A stretch of DNA of 64,000 nucleotides. Origin: Dehalococcoidia bacterium (lineage in GTDB: Bacteria > Chloroflexota > Dehalococcoidia > UBA2979). Below the pieces are notes generated by a model, which was given only the letters and a program-made list of their open reading frames with translations, was not told the origin of the DNA and ran no database searches. The position numbers and the translations under genes were made by a program. The stretch spans positions 290,336 through 354,335 of the forward strand of contig OZ242017.1 of the NCBI GenBank assembly GCA_965204835.1, written 5' to 3'. Below, piece by piece: positions 10,403 to 63,075 of the stretch. The first letter of the stretch is position 1, and each line of letters starts with the position of its first letter.

Positions 10403-13849
<3,447 letters not shown>

Positions 13850-13853
<4 letters not shown>

Positions 13854-14755
13854 GCGCCGCCCTCCCCGTCCGCCGCGTCGGCCGGGCCCCAGTATCGGTC
13901 GACGAGCAGCGCGAGGCGCTGTCTCGTCCCGGCCGGGACCTGGTGCGGCGCGCTCATCAGCGCCGACGCGAGTGCGTCGTTGCACTCGCAGGCGCGCTCG
14001 CCCGCGAGCCCCTCGATGGCCGCGGCGAGGATCGCGCGGGCGCGGTCGGTGTTCTCGCGCAGCACGCGCAGCACGAGGTCGGCGCTCACGTCCTCCTCGT
14101 GCTCGTGCCAGACGTCGTAGTCGGTGACGAAGCAGATCGAGGCGTAGCAGAGCTCGGCCTCGCGGGCGAGGCGCGCCTCGGGCAGCGCCGTCATGCCGAC
14201 GATGTCCGCGCCCCACGAGCGGAACAGCTCGGACTCCGCGCGCGTCGAGAACGCCGGGCCCTCGATGACCACCAGGGTGCCGCCCTCGTGCGCCGTCACG
14301 CCCACGCCGAGCGCGGCGGTGGCGAGGTGCTGCGAGAGCGGCGCACAGAACGGGTCGGCCAGCCCGACGTGCGCGACGAGGCCGTCACCGAAGAAGCTCG
14401 GCGGCCGTCCCCGCGTGCGGTCGATGAGCTGGTCCGGCACCACGGCGTGCCCCGGCTCGATGTGCTGCTGTAGCGACCCGACCGCGGAGGCCGCGAGGAG
14501 CTGCCCGACGCCGAGCTGGCGGAAGCCGTGGATGTTGGCGCGCGCCGGCAGCTCGTGCGGCAGGATCGTGTGCCCCTCGCCGTGACGGGCGAGGAAGGCC
14601 ACGCGCTTCCCGCCGAGCGAGCCCACGATGTACGGCCCGCTCGGCTTGCCGAACGGCGTGTCAAGCTCGACGCGCTCGGGCGCCTCGATGGCATCGAGGG
14701 CGTAGAAGCCGGAGCCGCCGATGACGCCGATGTCGGCCGTCGCGCTCACGATCAC
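13850..14755 (-). CDS. mtnP: S-methyl-5-prime-thioadenosine phosphorylase
   Basis: 301 aa. ...IGVIGGSGFY...FGKPSGP...VAFLARHG.GH...P.ELP.RANI....LGV..L...SAVGSL....PG, typical MTAP/PNP family. Confidence 0.9.
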
Positions 14756-14776
14756 GCCCCTTCGTCGTCTCGAACG

Positions 14777-15310
14777 CTAGACGATCGAGTCACTCTTCTG
14801 CCGGTTGCAGTCTCCACACAGCACCTGGACGTTGTCGATGGTGTTGCCGCCGCCCTTCGCCACGGGGATGACGTGGTCGAACTGCAGGTCGTCCTCGGCG
14901 CTGCACTGTACACATTGTCCGGCGTCTCGTTCCCACACGAACGCGCGCACCTCGTCCGGGATGCGCTCGCGGCGCGCCTCGGCGACCTCCTCGTCGCGCG
15001 CGCGGATCTTGCGCAGGCGGTCGAGGCGCGCGTCCTGTCGCCGCTGGCGGTCCCACACGAGCAACTCGACGTCCTCGCCGGTGAGGTCGTCGTCGGCCCA
15101 GAACAGGCCCGCGTCCGTCCACCACAGCACGCGGTCACCGTCCTCGCCGATGCGCGCCGCGCCCGACTCGTCGAGTTCGCGCAGGGCGCGCCCGTGCTCG
15201 CCGTACGTCAGGCTGAAGTGCCGGGACTGCGAGGTGAAGAAGCGCCAGCTCGAGAAGATCCAGAAGCCGGACTGCTCGATGCGCCCGCTGCTCACCTTGC
15301 GCAGGCTCAC
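14777..15310 (-). CDS. HNH endonuclease domain protein
   Basis: 177 aa. C-terminal ...CVQCSAEDDLQFDHVIPVAKGGGNTIDNVQVLCGDCNRQK (HNH with CxxC...CxxC zinc knuckle). N-terminal about 110 aa has no recognisable motif. Confidence 0.8.
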   Translation of the reverse strand: MSLRKVSSGRIEQSGFWIFSSWRFFTSQSRHFSLTYGEHGRALRELDESGAARIGEDGDRVLWWTDAGLFWADDDLTGEDVELLVWDRQRRQDARLDRLRKIRARDEEVAEARRERIPDEVRAFVWERDAGQCVQCSAEDDLQFDHVIPVAKGGGNTIDNVQVLCGDCNRQKSDSIV

Positions 15311-15334
15311 TGCTGCCCCCTCATGGGCGCCCCC

Positions 15335-16426
15335 TCACGACGCCGCCTCGACGCCCACGGCCGACGCCGCCGCGACGGCAGACGCGATCGAGGGGCCGTA
15401 GGGCGCGCGTAGCACCCCCTGCTCCGTCACGATCGCGTCGATCAGCTCCGCCGGGGTCACGTCGAACGCCGGGTTGAGCGCCCGCGCGCCGGGCGCCACG
15501 AGGTCCGCGCCGCCCGGGCGCAGCACCTCGTCCTCGGCGCGCTCCTCGATGGGGATCGAGGCGCCGTCGGGCGTGTGGGGGTCGAGGGTGGAGACGGGCG
15601 CGACGATGTAGAACGGGATGCCGTGGTGGCGGGCGAGCGCCGCGAGCATGTACGTGCCGATCTTGTTGGCGGTGTCGCCGTTGGCGGCGACGCGGTCGGC
15701 GCCCGTGACGACGGCCGTGACGCGGCCGGCAGCCATCAGCGACGCTGCCGCGCCCTCGACGACGAGCCGGAACGGCACGACGTGCCGTTGCAGCTCCCAC
15801 GCCGTCAGGCGCGCGCCCTGCAGCCGCGGGCGCGTCTCGCACGCGAGCACCTCGGTGAGCCGCCCGCTGCGCCACCCCTCGACGATGACGCCGAGGGCGG
15901 TGCCGCCGCCCGCGGTGGCGAGCGGGCCGGTGTTGCAGAGCGTCATCACGCGCGTGGCGGGCGGGAACAGCGCCGCGCCGAGTTCCGCCATGCGGGCGTC
16001 GGCGGCGTGCTGCTCCGCGTGGATCGCACGCGCCTCGTCGAGCGCGACGGCGCGCGCCTCGTCGTCGTTCGACGCACCCGCGACCCGGGCGGCGACGCGG
16101 TCCAGCGCCCAGCGCAGGTTCACGGCGGTCGGGCGCGTCGTGCCGAGCACCCGCGCGGCCTCCTCGACGGCCGCGACGACGCCGGACGGCGTCGAGGCGG
16201 CGGTGACGGCGAGCGCGTAGGCGGCGGTCACGCCGATGGCCGGCGCGCCGCGCACGCGCATGGTGGTGATGGCCTCGGCGGCGGCCTCGACGGTGTCGAG
16301 GGGGATGTAGCGCTCCTCGGCGGGGAGCAGGGTCTGGTCGAGGAGCCACAGCCGCCCCTCGCGCCACGCGACGGGCTCGTAGGGCTCACGGGTGGATGCG
16401 GCGTCGGGCGCCCGTGCCATGCACAC
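15335..16426 (-). CDS. mtnA: Methylthioribose-1-phosphate isomerase
   Basis: 363 aa. ...LLDQTLLP.EE.Y......V..AI..M.VRGAPAIGV.AAY..., ...GADRVAANGDTANKIGTY, eIF-2B/MtnA family. The start could be the second ATG at 16420. Confidence 0.9.
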   Translation of the reverse strand: MCMARAPDAASTREPYEPVAWREGRLWLLDQTLLPAEERYIPLDTVEAAAEAITTMRVRGAPAIGVTAAYALAVTAASTPSGVVAAVEEAARVLGTTRPTAVNLRWALDRVAARVAGASNDDEARAVALDEARAIHAEQHAADARMAELGAALFPPATRVMTLCNTGPLATAGGGTALGVIVEGWRSGRLTEVLACETRPRLQGARLTAWELQRHVVPFRLVVEGAAASLMAAGRVTAVVTGADRVAANGDTANKIGTYMLAALARHHGIPFYIVAPVSTLDPHTPDGASIPIEERAEDEVLRPGGADLVAPGARALNPAFDVTPAELIDAIVTEQGVLRAPYGPSIASAVAAASAVGVEAAS

Positions 16427-23268: not shown

Positions 23269-23595
23269 ATGAATTCGTGTATGCTGGAGGGCATGGCGGA
23301 GGAGAGCGGGCGGTACCTGGCTGGCGGCGGCGAGCGCCGCGATGAGGACTGGGCCAGCGGGCGCGGCGTGCGCCGGCTGCGCCGTCACCTCGGTGAGACG
23401 CAGGCGGCCTTCGCGGACCGCCTCGGCACGAACCAGCAGACGGTCTCGGAGTGGGAGCGCGGCGCGCGCCGGCCGCGGCGCATGGCCCGGCGCCTGCTCC
23501 ACCTCGTCGCCGAGCAGGCCGGCTACTACGACGCCACCGACATCGACACCCCGGACGCGGACGGCGACGGGGAAGACGGGGAGGGGGACGGGTAG
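23269..23595 (+). CDS. XRE-family helix-turn-helix transcriptional regulator with acidic tail
   Basis: 108 aa. HTH LRRHLGETQAAFADRLGTNQQTVSEWERGARRP. C-terminal DTPDADGDGEDGEGDG. Confidence 0.7.
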   Translation: MNSCMLEGMAEESGRYLAGGGERRDEDWASGRGVRRLRRHLGETQAAFADRLGTNQQTVSEWERGARRPRRMARRLLHLVAEQAGYYDATDIDTPDADGDGEDGEGDG

Positions 23596-23599
23596 CGCC

Positions 23600-24670
23600 A
23601 TGACGCCCACGCTGACCGCGCCGCGCGCCGCCGCGCTCGCCGCGCCGCTGCAGGAGCGGGAGCTCGTCGCACTGTGGCTGCTGGGGCGCGTGCCGGCGGA
23701 GCTCCTGCCGTGGCCGCTGCTGCGCGCGGGCCGCGCCGGGCGCGGGCCCGGCCCGGACGTGCGCGAGGCCGCGTTCGCGGGCCCTCACGGCGTCGTGCTC
23801 TGCGGGGACGTCGAGGTTCACCTCGCCGCCACGGACTTCGTCCACCACGGCCATCTTGATGACCCCGCCTACGCGGACGTGGTGCTGCACCTCGTGTGGC
23901 GCGACGACCGGCCGCCGGGCGGCCCCGCGGAGGCCGGGGGGCCGCAGCCGCTGCCTGGGGGCGGCGGCGCACCCACCGTCGAGGTCGGTCCGGCGCTCGG
24001 GTCGGACCCGGCCCGGCTGCGGCGGCTGCTGCGCAAGGGCCCGCGGGGCACGGAGCCCTGCGCGGCCACCGCACGCGCTCGCGGCCCCGCCGCCACGGCG
24101 GAGCTCGTCCGCGCCGAGGGCCGCAGGCGCCTCGCGGAGCGCGCCTGGCACGCCGCCGCGCTCGCCGCGGAGCACGGCTGGGACGGCGCGTGGGAGGCGC
24201 TGCTGGACGGCGCCCTGCGCGGCAGCGCCGGCCGCCGCCGCGAGACGCCGGAGCAGCGCGCCGCGCTCGCCGCCCGGCTCGCCGCGTCGCTCGGCCTCGA
24301 CGTCCTCCAGTCGTTGCGCTCGCTCGCCGTGGAGGGCGGGGCGCGGCCGCGCGCCCTGATCGCCGCGCTCCGCGGCGGTGACGCCATCGGCCCGGGCCGC
24401 GCCGCCGAGGTGGGCTGGAACGCAGCGCTCCCGCTGCTCGCCGCCTCCGCCGCCGCCTTCGATGACCCCACCCTCGCCCGCGCCACCGCGGACCTCGCCG
24501 AGCGCTGGCCCGCGCCTCGCCCCTATGGCCGCACGCGCGCCCTCGCGGATCTCCTTGGCCCACCGCCGCGCGGCGCGGGCGCCCAGCACGCGCAGGGCCT
24601 CCTCCACCTCCAGGACCTGTGGTGCAACCGCGGCGGCTGCGGGCGGTGTCCCGCCTCTTTGCAGGACTAA
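23600..24670 (+). CDS. DUF2851-like protein
   Basis: 356 aa from ATG 23600 inside track ORF 23342-24670. ERELVALW..., GDVEVHLAATDFVHHGHLDDPAYADVVLHLVW..., C-terminal QGLLHLQDLWCNRGGCGRCP. Family assignment from memory. Confidence 0.6.
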   Translation: MTPTLTAPRAAALAAPLQERELVALWLLGRVPAELLPWPLLRAGRAGRGPGPDVREAAFAGPHGVVLCGDVEVHLAATDFVHHGHLDDPAYADVVLHLVWRDDRPPGGPAEAGGPQPLPGGGGAPTVEVGPALGSDPARLRRLLRKGPRGTEPCAATARARGPAATAELVRAEGRRRLAERAWHAAALAAEHGWDGAWEALLDGALRGSAGRRRETPEQRAALAARLAASLGLDVLQSLRSLAVEGGARPRALIAALRGGDAIGPGRAAEVGWNAALPLLAASAAAFDDPTLARATADLAERWPAPRPYGRTRALADLLGPPPRGAGAQHAQGLLHLQDLWCNRGGCGRCPASLQD

Positions 24671-24931: not shown

Positions 24932-25028
24932 GGGAGTGGATGGTGTCCGGTGGCGCCCGCGGTCTTCAAAACCGTTGTGGGGCTGCGTCGCAGTCCCGGG
25001 TGGGTTCGACCCCCACGCACTCCCGCCA
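24932..25028 (+). tRNA. selC: tRNA-Sec (anticodon UCA), CCA encoded
   Basis: 97 nt. Acceptor GGGAGTG(G)/(G)CACTCCC with discriminator G and CCA. 6-bp D-stem GGTGTC/GGCGCC with 4-nt loop. Anticodon loop CUUCAAA (TCA at 24966-24968). Long variable arm GGGGCUGC...GCAGUCCC. T-arm GTGGG-TTCGACC-CCCAC. Aligns block by block with E. coli selC recalled from memory. Confidence 0.9.
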
Positions 25029-25348: not shown

Positions 25349-26428
25349 CTAAGACGCGCGAATGCGCGCCAGGAGGCGGTCTTCCCAGGACCAGTCGAAC
25401 TCGAGCGACTCGTGGAGGCCCTCGGAGCGGTACCACTCGTAGGTCTGCTCGACGGCGGTGCGGAACGTGTAGGCGGGCTCCCAGCCGATGTCGCGGCGCA
25501 GGCGTTCGATCGAGAAGACCGTGCTCTCGTTCCAGCGATGGATGTACGGGGCCAGGCGCTGGATCATCTGCTGCAGGTACGGGAGATTGCGCTGGCTCTG
25601 CGGCGCGGTCACCGCCCCGAAGTTGCCCGGCTCCTCGGGGTCGTCGGCGAGCGCGATCTCGCCGTCGTAGATGGCGTCCATCGTCCCGGGCGGGATGAAC
25701 ACCTTGTCCGCCTCGACGCCGAGGATGTCGGCGAAGGTGTCGACGTAGCCCTCGTCGCTCCAGTAGTCGCGGCCAGTCAGGTTGTAGCGCTTGCCGAAGG
25801 TCTGGGGCTGCTGCATCAGCATGCGCATGGCCGCGGCCTCGTCGTCGACGTGGCCGATCTGGCTGAGCGTGGTGCCGTCGCCGGGGATCATCACCGGGCG
25901 GCCCTGCAGAAGGCGGCTGAACATGCGCTGCTCGCGCACGGGGATGATGTTGTGCGGGCCGAACACCATCGAGAACGGCACGATGGTGGCCGGGAAGCCG
26001 TGCTCACGGTGCTCGCGCAGCAGCATCGCCTCGCACGCCAGCTTGTCCAGGCCGTACTGCGACTGCCGATCGGTCCCGTCGACGGGCGAGCTCTCACGGA
26101 TCGGCAGCACCTTCGTGGCGGCGTAGATCACCGTCGAGCTGGCGAAGATGTAGTGGCCGGTGCGGCCCTTGAAGATCTCCACCATGATCTCGACGTCCTC
26201 CGGCGTGTATCCGGAGATGTCCTGGATGGCGTCGAACTCCTCGTCCGCGAAGACCTCACGCATGCCGTCGTGGTCGGTGCGGTCGCCGTAGAGGCGGCGC
26301 ACGCCGCGCGGCAGCTTGGCCTCGGTCTGGCCGCGGTTGAAGATCGTGACGTCGTGGCCGTGCCGGACCAGCTCGTGGACCAGCGCGAGCCCGTTAAAGC
26401 GCGTCCCGCCCATCACCAGCACCTTCAT
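25349..26428 (-). CDS. NAD-dependent epimerase/dehydratase family protein
   Basis: 359 aa from ATG 26428. MKVLVMGGTRFNGLAL (Rossmann fold), catalytic YGLDK. Confidence 0.85.
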   Translation of the reverse strand: MKVLVMGGTRFNGLALVHELVRHGHDVTIFNRGQTEAKLPRGVRRLYGDRTDHDGMREVFADEEFDAIQDISGYTPEDVEIMVEIFKGRTGHYIFASSTVIYAATKVLPIRESSPVDGTDRQSQYGLDKLACEAMLLREHREHGFPATIVPFSMVFGPHNIIPVREQRMFSRLLQGRPVMIPGDGTTLSQIGHVDDEAAAMRMLMQQPQTFGKRYNLTGRDYWSDEGYVDTFADILGVEADKVFIPPGTMDAIYDGEIALADDPEEPGNFGAVTAPQSQRNLPYLQQMIQRLAPYIHRWNESTVFSIERLRRDIGWEPAYTFRTAVEQTYEWYRSEGLHESLEFDWSWEDRLLARIRAS

Positions 26429-26529
26429 GGTCGCCTCCCTGCGTGTGCTCCGACTGCTCGTGGATCGTCGGGCCGCTACGCGCCGAGCGCCTCGGCCCGC
26501 AGGCGGAGGCACAGAACGGCCCACCCGCC

Positions 26530-27171
26530 TCAGCCCGCGAGGGCGGAGGCAAAGAACGGCCCGACAGCCTGCTCGATCGCGTACTCGTCGCCCCACCAGA
26601 AGTGGTCGGCGCCCGCCACCACGCGCACCGACGCCTCGCCCGCGCACGACTCGGCGAGGGCCTGCAGCCCGGCCTCGTTGCTGCCCTCGTCCTCGCTGCC
26701 GGAGATGAGCAGCAGCGGCCCCGTGAAGGCGGCGAGGGCGTCGTGCGCGCCCTCCGCCATCATCAGCGGCAGCGAGACCAGCGCCAGCGCCGGGAGCGCG
26801 TCGCCGGCCACGCCCACCGCGGTGCCCGCACCGAAGGAGTAGCCCGCGAGGCCGACGCGGTCGGCGTCGATCTCATCGAGGCCGGCGGCGTACGCCAGCA
26901 CGCTGGTGGTGTCCGTGCGGGCCTCGTCGCCGTCGCCGGGGACGCCGTCGGAGCCGCCGACGCCGCGGAAGTTGAACATGACGGCCGCGATGCCGCGCGC
27001 GACAACGCTCGAGGCGACGGCGGCGACGACGTTGTTGTGCATCGAGCCGCCGTACTCGGGGTGCGGGTGGCAGATCACGACGGCCCCGAAGGGGCCGGCA
27101 CCGTCGGGGAGTGTGAGCACGCCCTCCAGGCTGGCGCCGTCGCTCTCGATGGTGATGCGGCGTTGCGGCAT
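26530..27171 (-). CDS. Alpha/beta hydrolase (dienelactone hydrolase-like)
   Basis: 213 aa. ...VVICHPHPEYGGSM.N, nucleophile elbow LAGYSFGAG, C-terminal ...GADHFW. Confidence 0.72.
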   Translation of the reverse strand: MPQRRITIESDGASLEGVLTLPDGAGPFGAVVICHPHPEYGGSMHNNVVAAVASSVVARGIAAVMFNFRGVGGSDGVPGDGDEARTDTTSVLAYAAGLDEIDADRVGLAGYSFGAGTAVGVAGDALPALALVSLPLMMAEGAHDALAAFTGPLLLISGSEDEGSNEAGLQALAESCAGEASVRVVAGADHFWWGDEYAIEQAVGPFFASALAG

Positions 27172-59009: not shown

Positions 59010-59825
59010 ATGTGCATGGCCATCACACTAACACTACGGCGGGGCGGCCTCGCCGGATGTACCCTCGACGGGGAGGGGTCGATGACCATCGAGTCCCAGC
59101 GTGTGCCGCCCGGCCGTTCGCCCGTGCTCATCGCGCACCGCACCACGATGGGCCTGCGGCCCGAGAACACGATCGTCGGCATCGAGGCAGCCGTCGCGTC
59201 GGGCGTCAACGGCGTCGAGATCGACGTGCGCGCCACGCGCGACGGCGTCGCGGTGCTCATGCACGACGGCTCGCTCGCCCGCACCACGGGCGACGCGAGG
59301 GACGTCGAGGACGTCACGCTCGACGAGCTGCGCGCGCTGCGGGTGCTCGACCCGCACGGTGACGTCGGCCCGCAGCCCATCCCGACGTTCGCCGAGGCGC
59401 TGGCGGCGACGGCTGCCACGCACCTCGTGATCGAGGTGAAGCAGGAGGGCATCGAGGACCTCGTGGCGCGCGCCGTCCGTGACGCGGACGCGCTCGGGCG
59501 CTGCTCGCTGTGCGCGTTCGACGCGGGCGTGTGCGCGGCCGCGGCTGCGGCCATGCCGGGGATGCCGGTCTCGCTCCTCGCCGCGCCGAACCGCGAGCGG
59601 GCCGAGGTGCTGGCGCAGGCCGCCGACCTCGGCCTCGCGGGCGTGAGCCTGCACTTCTCGATGGTCGACGAGCAGCTCGTCGCCGAGGCTCACGACGCGG
59701 GGCTGACGGTGGCGACGTGGACGGTCAACGAGGAGCCCGACGTGCGTCGCATGCACGCCGCGGGCGTGGACCTGATCTGTGGCGACTACCCGGCACGCCT
59801 CGTCGAGGTCGTGCGCGGCGAGTGA
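59010..59825 (+). CDS. Glycerophosphodiester phosphodiesterase family protein
   Basis: VLIAHRTTMGLRPENT and VEIDVRATRDGVAVLMHD motifs. The start may be ATG 59082. Confidence 0.85.
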   Translation: MCMAITLTLRRGGLAGCTLDGEGSMTIESQRVPPGRSPVLIAHRTTMGLRPENTIVGIEAAVASGVNGVEIDVRATRDGVAVLMHDGSLARTTGDARDVEDVTLDELRALRVLDPHGDVGPQPIPTFAEALAATAATHLVIEVKQEGIEDLVARAVRDADALGRCSLCAFDAGVCAAAAAAMPGMPVSLLAAPNRERAEVLAQAADLGLAGVSLHFSMVDEQLVAEAHDAGLTVATWTVNEEPDVRRMHAAGVDLICGDYPARLVEVVRGE

Positions 59826-59846: not shown

Positions 59847-60686
59847 CTACTCCAGCGTGAGCGGCGTGTCCTCGCGGTTCGCCCACTCGCCCATCGAGCC
59901 GTCGTAGTTGCGTGCGCGGTCGTTGCCGAGCATGCGCAGGACGAAGGCCGCGAACGCGGCCCTGATGCCACCCTGTCAGTAGGTGACGGTCGCCACCTCC
60001 GGGTCGATCCCCGCGCCCTCGATCAGCTCCCGGATCTCGTCGAGGGGCCGGAAGCGGCGTGACGGCGGCCCCTGCATGAGCCGCAGCCACTCGAGGTGCT
60101 TCGCGCCCGGCACGTGGCCGGCGCGCTGGTTGCCGCGGTCGTTCGAGCCGTCCCACTCGCCGTCGGAGCGCGTGTCCCAGATCTGCGGTGCGTCCGGCGC
60201 GTCGAGGCCAGCCTCGACGATCGCCATAAGCTCGTCGACCGTGCAGTGCGCGCCGCGGTCCACGCGCGCCTCGAACGTCGCGGGCGCGGGGCGCGCGGGC
60301 GCCGAGGTGAGCGGGCGGCCCTCGTGCAGCCAGGCGTTGAGGCCGCCGTCGACGACGCGCACGTCGCGGTGGCCGAAGTGCTCGAAGACCCACCACACGC
60401 GCGCGGCGTGCAGCGAGGCGTTGTCGTCGTAGATGACGACGGGCGTGTCGTTGGAGATGCCGAGGCGGCCCATGAGGGCCTCGAACTCCGGCGGGGTCAT
60501 GACCAGGCGGCTGTTCTCGCGGCCCTTGAGGTAGGGGTGGGGGAGCCCGACGGAGCCGGGGATGTGCGCGCGCCGGTAGGCGACCGCCTCCCCGGCGTCG
60601 ATGAGCGCGAAGTCCGTGCCGACGCCGTCGAGGTGGTCGGCGAGCCAGTCGGTGGTGGTGAGCAGCTCGGACTGCGCGGTCGTCAT
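59847..60686 (-). CDS. Two-domain rhodanese (thiosulfate/3-mercaptopyruvate sulfurtransferase-like) with in-frame UGA (candidate selenocysteine) at the catalytic cysteine
   Basis: ATG 60686 with GAGGAGG SD. ...RRAHIPGS... (domain 1), ...RAGHVPGAKHLEW...DPEVATVTY-[TGA 59978..59976]-QGGIRAAFAAFVLRMLGNDRARNYDGSMGEWANREDTPLTLE, then TAG 59849..59847. The UGA sits where the active-site loop C-x-x-G-x-R-(A/S) starts. The downstream 42 codons are the expected end of a rhodanese domain. Confidence 0.78.
59944..59963 (-). promoter_or_regulatory. SECIS-like hairpin downstream of the rhodanese UGA
   Basis: RNA AGGGCCGC-GUUC-GCGGCCUU: 6 GC pairs plus G-U and A-U closing pairs, GUUC tetraloop. It starts 12 nt after the UGA. 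Folded by eye only. Confidence 0.45.
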
Positions 60687-60804
60687 GGTCGCCTCCTCGT
60701 CGCGTGGAGTACGCGTCAGGCGAGATCATACGCGGCCCTGCCGCTGGCGTCGGGCCGCCTCGGCGTGTCGCGCGGTAGCATGGCGTCGCGTCAGGAGGCG
60801 ACCC

Positions 60805-61644
60805 GTGCGCATCGGCATCTCGCTCCCCGTGCGGGAGCTCCAGAACGACATGGCGGCGATCCGCGACTTCGCGCAGACCGCCGACGACCTCGGCTTCACG
60901 CACCTCCGGGTCCCCGAGCTGCTCATCCGCCCCGGCAGCGGCGAGCTGCACGAGTCGCTCACGCTGCTGAGCTGGGTCGCGGCGGTTACCGCCAGTATCG
61001 AGCTCGTGCCGTCCGTCATCATCCTGCCCGCCCGCCAGACCGTGATGGTCGCGAAGCAGGCAGCCACCATCGACGTGCTGAGCGGCGGCCGGCTCCGCCT
61101 CGGCGTGGGCGTCGGCGGGAGCGCCGAGGAGTACGAGGCGCTGGGCCAGGACTTCCACACGCGCGGCCGCCGCTGCGAGGAGCAGCTCGAGTTGCTGCGC
61201 CTGCTGTGGACGCAGGAGTCCGTGGACTTCGAGGGACGGTGGGACCGCGTCGACGGCGCGGGCGTCAACCCGCTGCCGGTGCAGCGGCCGATCCCGGTGT
61301 GGATCGGGCCCGGCGGCGGCGCGCCCCTCACCGACCGCATGGCGCGCCGCATCGGACGCCTCTCCGACGGCTGGTTCGCGATCGTCCCGCGTGACGACGT
61401 GGCCGCGTCGCACGCGGCCGTCGCCCGCCACGCGGAGGAGGCGGGCCGCGACCCCACCTCGATCGGCGTCGAGGGCGCCGTGCCGGTCGTCGGCCGGGAG
61501 CGGGCGGAGTGGCTCGCGGACATCGAGGCGTGGGCGGGCGCCGGCGCGACGCACCTCTGCCTGCGCACGCTCGGCGGCGGCCTCGACGCGGCGGGCCACC
61601 TCGCCGCGCTGCGCGAGGCGCGTGAGGTGCTGGACTCGCGCTAG
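60805..61644 (+). CDS. Luciferase-like monooxygenase (LLM) family, F420-dependent-type oxidoreductase
   Basis: 279 aa from GTG 60805 (AGGAGG SD). ...LGFTHLRVPE......L..AA.T..I.L...V..LP.R......K..AT.D.LSGGRL.LGVG.G. Confidence 0.78.
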   Translation: MRIGISLPVRELQNDMAAIRDFAQTADDLGFTHLRVPELLIRPGSGELHESLTLLSWVAAVTASIELVPSVIILPARQTVMVAKQAATIDVLSGGRLRLGVGVGGSAEEYEALGQDFHTRGRRCEEQLELLRLLWTQESVDFEGRWDRVDGAGVNPLPVQRPIPVWIGPGGGAPLTDRMARRIGRLSDGWFAIVPRDDVAASHAAVARHAEEAGRDPTSIGVEGAVPVVGRERAEWLADIEAWAGAGATHLCLRTLGGGLDAAGHLAALREAREVLDSR

Positions 61645-61666: not shown

Positions 61667-62914
61667 CTACGGGCCGCGACCCGCGAAGATCGCGGGCGGG
61701 AACGCGGGCTCGACGTCGTCGGGGATGCCCTCGCGGATCGCGCGCTCCACCGTCTCGGCGGCGAGGTCCACCTCGGCCTCGGTGTTGAAGGCGTGCAGCG
61801 AGAGCCGCACGCTGTTGAACTCCGCCACCGACCGGCACACGACCCGGGCCTCGGCCTGCAGGAAGGCGTTCACGTCGGCCGCCGGCAGGTCGTCGACCAC
61901 GAAGCAGAACAGCCCCGTGCGCGTCGAGTCGTGGCGAGGGCTCACCACGCTCACGCCCTCGATGCGCCCGAAGCGCTGCTCGGCGTAGCGGTTGAGCTCC
62001 TGCGCGCGGGCGAGGACCGCCTCGGGGCCGGAGTCGAGGAACCACTCGGCGGCCTCGAGCGTACCGGCGATGAGCGGCGTCGAGGTCGTCGTGAGCTCGT
62101 ACTTGGTGATGCGCTCGCGCTCCGGCTCGAAGTTGCCCGCGAAGTCGTACGAGGCCGCCGCACGGCCCGCGACCTTCGCCGGCTCGACGAGCGGGATGAG
62201 GTCCTCGCGGATGTAGAGCGCTCCGAGGCCGTCCGGCCCGCACAGCCACTTGTGCGAGGGGATCGCGTAGAAGTCGACGTTCGTCGCGCGCACGTCGATG
62301 GGGATGTGCCCGGCGGTCTGCGCGCCGTCGACCACCACGTGGCCGCCGCGGCGGTGGGTCTCCTCGACGATCGTGCCGAGGGGCAGGAGCTGGCCGGTCG
62401 AGTACGAGATCTCGGAGAGGATGACGAGCTTGATGTTCCCGCTCGCCGCGTCCATCGCCGAGACGAACGACTCCATCGCCGCGCCGGGCGAGTCCTGCGC
62501 GTCGATGGGCACGATGGCCACCTCGCAGCCCGTGCGCTCGCGCAGGTAGTAGGCGGGGACGATGCCGGAGCCGTGCTCGACGTCGGTGGTGACGATGGTG
62601 TCGGCGGAGGTCACCTCGAGGCCGTTGGTGATGACGTTGATGCCCTCGGTGGTGTTGCCGGTGATGGCGATCTCGTCGGGCGATGCGCCGCCGACGAGGC
62701 GGCCCATCACCTCGCGGTAGCGCCCGGCGAGGTCGAAGCGGTCATCGAGGGCGTGGCGGGTGGTCGAACCGTGCATGAGTTCGAGGTCGAGGCGCTGCTG
62801 GACGGCCTCGTGGGTGGCGCGGCGCTTGGGGCCGGAGAAGCCGGAGTTCATGTACGCGTACTCGATGAGTGCGGGCGTGTCGTCGCGCCACGCCTGCCAG
62901 CGCTCGTTGCTCAT
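61667..62914 (-). CDS. Class V aminotransferase-fold PLP enzyme (cysteine desulfurase / selenocysteine lyase-like)
   Basis: 415 aa from ATG 62914. ...ITGNTTEGIN..., ...VVDGAQTAGHIPIDV...DFYAIPSHKWLCGP.G.G.LY (PLP Lys), C-terminal ...VRLSLHAFNTEAEVD. Confidence 0.82.
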   Translation of the reverse strand: MSNERWQAWRDDTPALIEYAYMNSGFSGPKRRATHEAVQQRLDLELMHGSTTRHALDDRFDLAGRYREVMGRLVGGASPDEIAITGNTTEGINVITNGLEVTSADTIVTTDVEHGSGIVPAYYLRERTGCEVAIVPIDAQDSPGAAMESFVSAMDAASGNIKLVILSEISYSTGQLLPLGTIVEETHRRGGHVVVDGAQTAGHIPIDVRATNVDFYAIPSHKWLCGPDGLGALYIREDLIPLVEPAKVAGRAAASYDFAGNFEPERERITKYELTTTSTPLIAGTLEAAEWFLDSGPEAVLARAQELNRYAEQRFGRIEGVSVVSPRHDSTRTGLFCFVVDDLPAADVNAFLQAEARVVCRSVAEFNSVRLSLHAFNTEAEVDLAAETVERAIREGIPDDVEPAFPPAIFAGRGP

Positions 62915-63075
62915 GCAGCCGCCTCCGTCGCATGTCCCGATCGTGGCCCCTCGCGTCCGAGGTGCTCGTGCGAGTCTACCGCGAGCAGGCGCAGTGGGCC
63001 GCACGACGAGCCGCGAGCGGCGGGGGGCGCGGCCCTATGATGGCGGCGAGGCAGTGACGGGTGAGGGAGGCTGGC

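Follow-up and report, generated by a model that had tools for sequence, protein, structure and literature searches.

A predicted selenocysteine-containing two-domain rhodanese sulfurtransferase, annotated as truncated, in a Dehalococcoidia bacterium

A 64-kb stretch of DNA from a Dehalococcoidia bacterium (contig OZ242017.1; the whole stretch is hereafter the window, G+C content 70.9%) carries on its reverse strand a gene for a two-domain rhodanese sulfurtransferase which is interrupted by an in-frame UGA. This gene very probably encodes a genuine selenoprotein, in which the catalytic cysteine (Cys) of the C-terminal rhodanese domain is replaced by UGA-encoded selenocysteine (Sec). The signature of recoding consists of an alignment column that holds either Sec or Cys, a conserved TGA with a conserved downstream frame, a selenocysteine insertion sequence (SECIS) showing covariation, and a gene for tRNA-Sec. 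Beyond this signature, we infer SelB binding, incorporation of selenium, the substrate, and any catalytic or oxidation-resistance advantage of Sec over Cys. The gene is a mis-annotated new member of an already predicted selenoprotein family and does not define a new category.

The annotated open reading frame (ORF), 60686..59976, comprises 236 codons, and its product terminates with ...GIDPEVATVTY immediately before TGA 59978..59976. Past this TGA, the frame reads QGGIRAAFAAFVLRMLGNDRARNYDGSMGEWANREDTPLTLE up to TAG 59849..59847, giving a product of 236 + 1 + 42 = 279 residues. Direct reading and translation of the DNA thus confirm the coordinates and the open extension of 42 codons that an earlier note on this DNA had described. 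Two tandem stretches of the 279-residue product match the Pfam family PF00581 (Rhodanese; E = 3.2e-33). The nearest database records belong to metagenome-assembled genomes (MAGs) labelled as Dehalococcoidia, Dehalococcoidaceae or Chloroflexota. All public entries of the clade end at the TGA as a 236-residue 'rhodanese-like domain-containing protein', the longer members of the cluster differing in the called start only, so that the mis-annotation as truncated which the note had expected of standard gene calling is indeed found in the databases. The gene callers leave a gap of 150 nucleotides (nt) before the convergent gene for glycerophosphodiester phosphodiesterase (GDPD), and read-through of the UGA fills it. 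A separate small ORF located 3' of the UGA was considered and rejected, since the first in-frame ATG is the 15th downstream codon and lies past the active-site loop; no Shine-Dalgarno-like sequence was seen before this ATG.

The position of the UGA within the protein is the first line of evidence. A database search with the read-through product, in which U was written as C, returned 2709 homologs, and the best 120 of these were aligned. Among these best 120, the column of the UGA is occupied by Cys followed by about 42 further residues in 85, while 34 end exactly one residue before this column, at ...TV[TS]Y; the remaining one is a fragment in which the column could not be assessed. Alignment to solved structures of the Protein Data Bank places residue 237 on the catalytic Cys of YCRIAERS (1UAR), YCRIGERS (3HZU) and TCRKGVTA (bovine 1DP2). 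Residue 237 (U) is the first position of the six-residue loop U-Q-G-G-I-R in the C-terminal domain. Since the structural alignment spans residues 4-276 of the 279-residue product, the 42 downstream residues fall within the core of the catalytic domain. The proposal that the UGA stands exactly at the active-site Cys therefore holds, on the homologs as well as on the structures.

The second line of evidence is the conservation of both the TGA and the frame that follows it. A genome scan limited to one genome per species yielded 52 related loci, and the Cys/Sec codon was readable in 48 of them; codon 237 is TGA in 16 and TGC or TGT in the other 32. In all 16 TGA loci, the downstream frame stays open to the homologous stop, with protein identity ranging from 97% down to 45%. 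Further, a scan of metagenomes with a degenerate DNA pattern for Y-TGA-Q-[GA]-G-I-R-A-A, in which eight codons are fixed, recovered at least 120 contigs from many sample sources. When the complete TGA-type loci listed from genomes, metagenomes and the window are taken together, 136 of 136 carry a downstream frame of 40-48 codons, and the motif YDGS[MW]xEW, which lies well outside the codons fixed by the pattern, is conserved in these loci. The TGA-containing orthologs that the earlier note had called for thus exist. The window was aligned at the DNA level with the 12 TGA-type relatives nearest to it, and variable columns over the 42 downstream codons were counted by hand, giving 10, 10 and 34 for the first, second and third codon positions, respectively. 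Such an excess at third positions is what translation and purifying selection leave in a sequence, and together with a frame that never decays it substantiates the conservation of the 42 codons.

These observations bear directly on the possibility that the gene is a pseudogene or a truncation, in which TGC/TGT would have become TGA by nonsense mutation, or the TGA would be a sequencing error, leaving a 236-residue product devoid of the active site. Such a reading matches the manner in which the gene is presented in public annotations (236-residue entries), but a nonsense mutation would not be conserved across 16 species-level genomes and at least 120 metagenome contigs, down to 45% identity, a sequencing error would not recur, and the frame downstream is undecayed, with its substitutions concentrated at third positions. 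A pseudogene or truncation is therefore barely conceivable.

The third line of evidence is a hairpin situated inside the codons R-A-A-F-A-A-F. It starts 13 nt 3' of the UGA, and folding gives a 7-bp stem, a distance of 20 nt from the UGA to the loop and a free energy of -13.3 kcal/mol. The published model of the bacterial SECIS (bSECIS) specifies a loop of 3-9 nt, a stem of 4-16 bp and a G in the first two loop positions (PMC13188914), along with 16-37 nt from the UGA to the loop and a minimum free energy of -7.5 kcal/mol or lower (PMC13188914). The hairpin of the window agrees with all four published constraints (4-nt loop starting with GU, 7 bp, 20 nt and -13.3 kcal/mol). Pairing of the stem is preserved in all 14 distinct sequences from the window's clade (100% of cells paired), a full pairing that none of 500 shuffles reached, and the covariation score is 0.325 versus 0.101; slid registers of the hairpin pair at 57% or less. 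In two stem pairs, G-C alternates with C-G; both bases have changed, each at the synonymous third position of an Arg or Ala codon. Where Cys is encoded, loci with a comparable GC content fold into weaker hairpins at scattered positions, with a median of -7.8 versus -13.3 kcal/mol. A consensus-compliant hairpin with covariation is hence present 3' of the UGA, as a SECIS prediction for this gene would have it.

Among 122 distinct downstream segments of the listed loci, three hairpin designs can be distinguished, of which type A is that of the window's clade. Type B, the majority, has the form UCCGUGC-GGC-GCACGGA within I-R-A-A-H-G, places the loop 17 nt after the UGA and comprises an invariant 5-bp core with one covarying C-G/A-U pair. 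Type C takes the form GGCGAACA-GU[CUG]-UGUUCGUC within A-A-N-S-L-F-V, the loop lying 25 nt after the UGA. In all three types, the first loop base is G and the spacing falls inside the range of 16-37 nt. As a side observation, the type B codons CGU GCG GCG CAC show no synonymous variation among 90 distinct sequences.

The fourth line of evidence is a gene for tRNA-Sec (selC) with a UCA anticodon, located 35 kb away in the same window; recoding of UGA to Sec depends on this tRNA for decoding. Neither selA nor selB adjoins the tRNA gene: one neighbouring ORF (23342..24670, forward strand) has a weak DUF2851 match only, with a G+C of 0.70 at second codon positions, and the other encodes an NAD-dependent epimerase/dehydratase (25349..26647, reverse strand). 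Heavy use of Sec is on record for Dehalococcoidia, since a 2026 database paper lists 46 and 49 selenoproteins in two genomes of this group (PMC13326102), and other genes with an in-frame TGA may therefore lie in the window.

A global reassignment of UGA was also considered and rejected, as the reading frames of SecA and GDPD have TGA at the point where these proteins naturally end. TGA stops 17 of the 54 ORFs of the window that are supported by G+C at third codon positions (GC3). Counted from stop to stop, the GC3-supported ORFs end on TAG in 33 cases, TGA in 17 and TAA in 4, a rough tally that includes some false positives. A preference for TAG looks unusual for a genome of 71% G+C.

The hairpin and the tRNA together weigh upon another explanation, namely read-through by a near-cognate tRNA that inserts Trp, Cys or Arg, with the hairpin merely slowing termination. 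UGA followed by C is a weak termination signal in bacteria, which speaks for such an event, and a translated downstream frame is by itself silent on the residue inserted. Nevertheless, the codon stands exactly on the catalytic Cys, where Trp or Arg would kill the enzyme, while an ordinary codon would suffice for Cys and is used in 32 related genomes. Moreover, the hairpin fits a SelB-type SECIS in loop size, G and spacing, features that the three clade designs keep, and tRNA-Sec is present. Near-cognate read-through is accordingly considered very improbable.

Several observations weigh against the assignment of the gene as a selenoprotein gene. The compensatory changes in the stem amount to roughly two independent events, and the contrast in hairpin energy between Sec and Cys loci (Mann-Whitney p = 4e-5) ignores phylogeny. 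A hairpin of equal quality occurs at the corresponding site of two Cys-type loci (L017:6688-6750 and L023:4616-4680; 7 bp, loops GUUC and CUUC, at the offset of the type A SECIS). The codons of Ala-Ala-Phe-Ala-Ala are intrinsically self-complementary; as Ala-Ala-Phe-Ala-Ala and Gly-Ala-Phe-Ala-Pro use self-complementary GCN/NGC codons, the hairpins of L017 and L023 are unsurprising, and the hairpin alone is consequently no proof of recoding. When about 55 ORFs of the 64-kb window, which belongs to a contig of 2.73 Mb, were scanned with Pfam or NCBIfam models, selA, selB and selD were not found, so that tRNA-Sec is the part of the decoding machinery verified in the window. The ORFs scanned are of the housekeeping kind, comprising adk, map, rpoA, truA, rplM, pgm, metK and ahcY, along with mtnA, an MTAP-like gene, groEL, secA, prs, valS, the nuo operon, glnA and others. 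Lastly, no direct observation of incorporated selenium or of the complete protein was found for this gene or for other members of the family.

The selenoprotein assignment would entail the following course of events. SelB, carrying Sec-tRNA(Sec), would bind the hairpin as the ribosome nears the UGA, and Sec would be inserted at residue 237 in place of termination. Translation would then run on for 42 codons, completing the U-Q-G-G-I-R loop and the catalytic domain. In the finished enzyme, thiosulfate or a similar donor would hand sulfane sulfur to the selenolate, forming a Se-S intermediate from which the sulfur would pass to an acceptor. A sulfur donor would be expected to yield this Se-S intermediate, and a perselenide would need a selenium donor.

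A different balance between termination and insertion is also conceivable, in which termination is normal, the 236-residue form is functional and Sec is inserted rarely or conditionally (for example, when selenium is available), giving two products. Bacterial Sec insertion competes with RF2-mediated termination, and some truncated product is thus to be expected. Furthermore, two MAGs contain both TGA-type and TGC-type copies, namely JAQCIU01 (casp40-mb.295; L029 and L023) and JANQNP01 (IP29b_bin.101; L035 and L049), which would fit a selenium-dependent use of isoforms. The 236-residue form, however, stops short of the catalytic residue and lacks both the active-site loop and the 42 C-terminal residues, which align with the catalytic core of solved structures. 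The strong purifying selection on the 42 codons shows that selection acts to keep the full-length form; a functional truncated form is therefore held to be highly unlikely. The co-occurrence of TGA and TGC copies in the same MAG suggests Sec/Cys isoform pairs instead of a simple orthologous replacement.

Regarding the history of the Sec codon, the window protein shares 62-72% identity with Cys-type Dehalococcoidia proteins and 45-59% with the other Sec clades, and a type B protein is equidistant from the Sec and Cys groups. These identities do not support a neat division into a single Sec clade and a single Cys clade, the two states being interleaved. A repeated origin or rebuilding of the Sec state and its SECIS inside this enzyme family is a tentative proposal, itself rather doubtful, which draws on the three designs, the closer Cys relatives, the self-complementary codons and the presence of the same hairpin in two Cys relatives. 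If this were true, a hairpin already present in the coding sequence would be pre-adapted and would permit a one-step conversion of Cys to Sec. Alternatively, turnover of the SECIS together with Sec-to-Cys loss could have left relic hairpins behind. The hairpin of L017 and L023 could have been left over from an earlier Sec codon, or the self-complementary Gly/Ala-Ala-Phe-Ala-Pro codons could have produced it by chance, in which case it could pre-adapt the site for Sec.

The coordinates of the gene, its proposed recoding elements, the tRNA-Sec gene and the neighbouring genes are compiled in Table 1.

Table 1. Features of the rhodanese locus and of the tRNA-Sec gene, in window coordinates.
Feature	Position	Strand	Details
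Predicted coding sequence of the Sec-containing two-domain rhodanese sulfurtransferase	59847..60686	-	279 codons + TAG
In-frame UGA, proposed Sec codon 237, at the catalytic position	59976..59978	-	
Shine-Dalgarno-like GAGGAGG	60692..60698	-	5 nt 5' of ATG 60686..60684; direct sequence reading
42 codons 3' of the UGA	59850..59975	-	Active-site loop QGGIR, next helix, YDGSMGEW strand
True stop TAG	59847..59849	-	The convergent GDPD gene ends 21 nt away
Predicted tryptic peptides encoded 3' of the UGA			AAFAAFVLR, NYDGSMGEWANR
SECIS-type hairpin	59945..59962	-	Arms GGGCCGC 59962..59956 and GCGGCCU 59951..59945; loop GUUC 59955..59952
tRNA-Sec (selC)	24932..25028	+	Anticodon UCA; ARAGORN; Rfam RF01852, 73.7 bits vs gathering score 47
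F420-dependent LLM-class oxidoreductase	60601..61644	+	Divergent; TIGR03619 above cutoff
GDPD	59010..59825	+	Convergent
SufS/CsdA-like class V aminotransferase	61667..63004	-	Further upstream; below every equivalog cutoff

The rhodanese gene stands alone between oppositely oriented genes. The order of its neighbours is kept in relatives of 95% identity only, and unrelated genes surround an ortholog of 67% identity. A cysteine desulfurase-rhodanese operon was rejected, because the rhodanese gene is transcribed alone and the linkage is limited to close relatives; with the linkage lost beyond these, the genomic context provides no clue to the physiological donor or acceptor.

Elsewhere in the window, a methionine/S-adenosylmethionine-cycle cluster (10403-16426, reverse strand) encodes an S-adenosylmethionine synthetase, an adenosylhomocysteinase, a GNAT acetyltransferase, a purine/methylthioadenosine phosphorylase-family protein and an MtnA-like methylthioribose-1-phosphate isomerase. 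The ORF of the last of these (IF-2B family) ends at TGA 15335..15337 and is followed in the same frame by an HNH endonuclease ORF (14777-16426 for the pair, reverse strand). As the Pfam match to MtnA is complete, the pair probably represents two genes and not a second Sec site.

The finding is of modest specialist interest, pertaining to annotation and to the evolution of the SECIS. Since the annotations end one residue before the catalytic residue, and no NCBIfam model scores above its cutoff so as to correct them, inventories of sulfur metabolism in Dehalococcoidia and Chloroflexota (marine, sponge and soil) miss or misread this gene. With the window gene, a well-supported member whose SECIS is defined joins one of the few selenoprotein families made up of group-transfer enzymes and not of thiol oxidoreductases. 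The original reports, with their 1-8 sequences, greatly understate how widespread the Sec form is. Furthermore, three SECIS designs and the coexistence of Sec and Cys copies provide material for studying the gain, retention and loss of the Sec codon.

Among enzymes of known structure, the window protein resembles the Cys-containing tandem thiosulfate sulfurtransferases of Thermus thermophilus (1UAR), Mycobacterium tuberculosis (SseA, 3HZU), cattle (1DP2/1RHD) and Azotobacter (RhdA, 1E0C), to which it aligns over its full length (E = 2e-41 to 2.5e-32). Both the window protein and these rhodaneses combine an inactive N-terminal domain with a catalytic C-terminal domain, a six-residue loop ending in Arg or Thr, and ...YDGSxxEW. 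The similarity is remote, and the loop reads U-Q-G-G-I-R in the window protein in contrast to C-R-I-[AG]-E-R or C-R-K-G-V-T in the solved rhodaneses. The fold and the two-domain architecture are also those of 3-mercaptopyruvate sulfurtransferase (E. coli SseA, 1URH; NF008557), and the automatic name given to the homologs by JGI is 'thiosulfate/3-mercaptopyruvate sulfurtransferase'. However, the matches to structures of 3-mercaptopyruvate sulfurtransferase are weaker than those to the thiosulfate-type enzymes, and the window protein, at 118.1 bits, misses the 250-bit cutoff of the equivalog NF008557. Its loop also departs from that of 3-mercaptopyruvate sulfurtransferase, which is of the CG[ST]GVT type.

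Searching the NCBIfam models gave no selenoprotein model for this rhodanese family above cutoff. In the literature, the rhodanese-related sulfurtransferase (COG2897) was predicted as a selenoprotein family in 2005 from the Sargasso Sea, with three sequences and a SECIS figure (PMC1088965). The subsequent Global Ocean Sampling analysis counted eight Sec sequences under cd01449 and one under COG2897, against thousands of Cys homologs (PMC2398784), and a 2026 review lists the family as 'form 4' with the motif UxxG (PMC13188914). These reports agree with the expectation voiced in the earlier note that no new selenoprotein family is involved. Like the published form 4, the window protein has two domains, a predicted Sec in place of the catalytic Cys and a U-Q-G-G that fits UxxG, with a G-containing apical loop just 3' of the UGA, an occurrence in environmental bacteria and many Cys homologs. 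The domain, the COG and the motif thus point to membership in form 4 (exemplars AACY01016424 and MCY3690685.1). Unlike the earlier reports, with their one to eight sequences, the present analysis finds the Sec form, with three SECIS designs, in 16 of 48 genomes of related species as well as on at least 120 contigs from metagenomes. The rhodanese selenoproteins of forms 1, 2 and 3 and TsoB similarly hold Sec at or near the active-site loop (PMC13188914). The motifs of these other forms are UxxS, CxU and, in a DsbD fusion, UxxxxU (PMC13188914), and forms 2 and 3 fall under COG0607, the single-domain PspE-type family (PMC9312934), whereas the window protein is a two-domain sulfurtransferase of COG2897.

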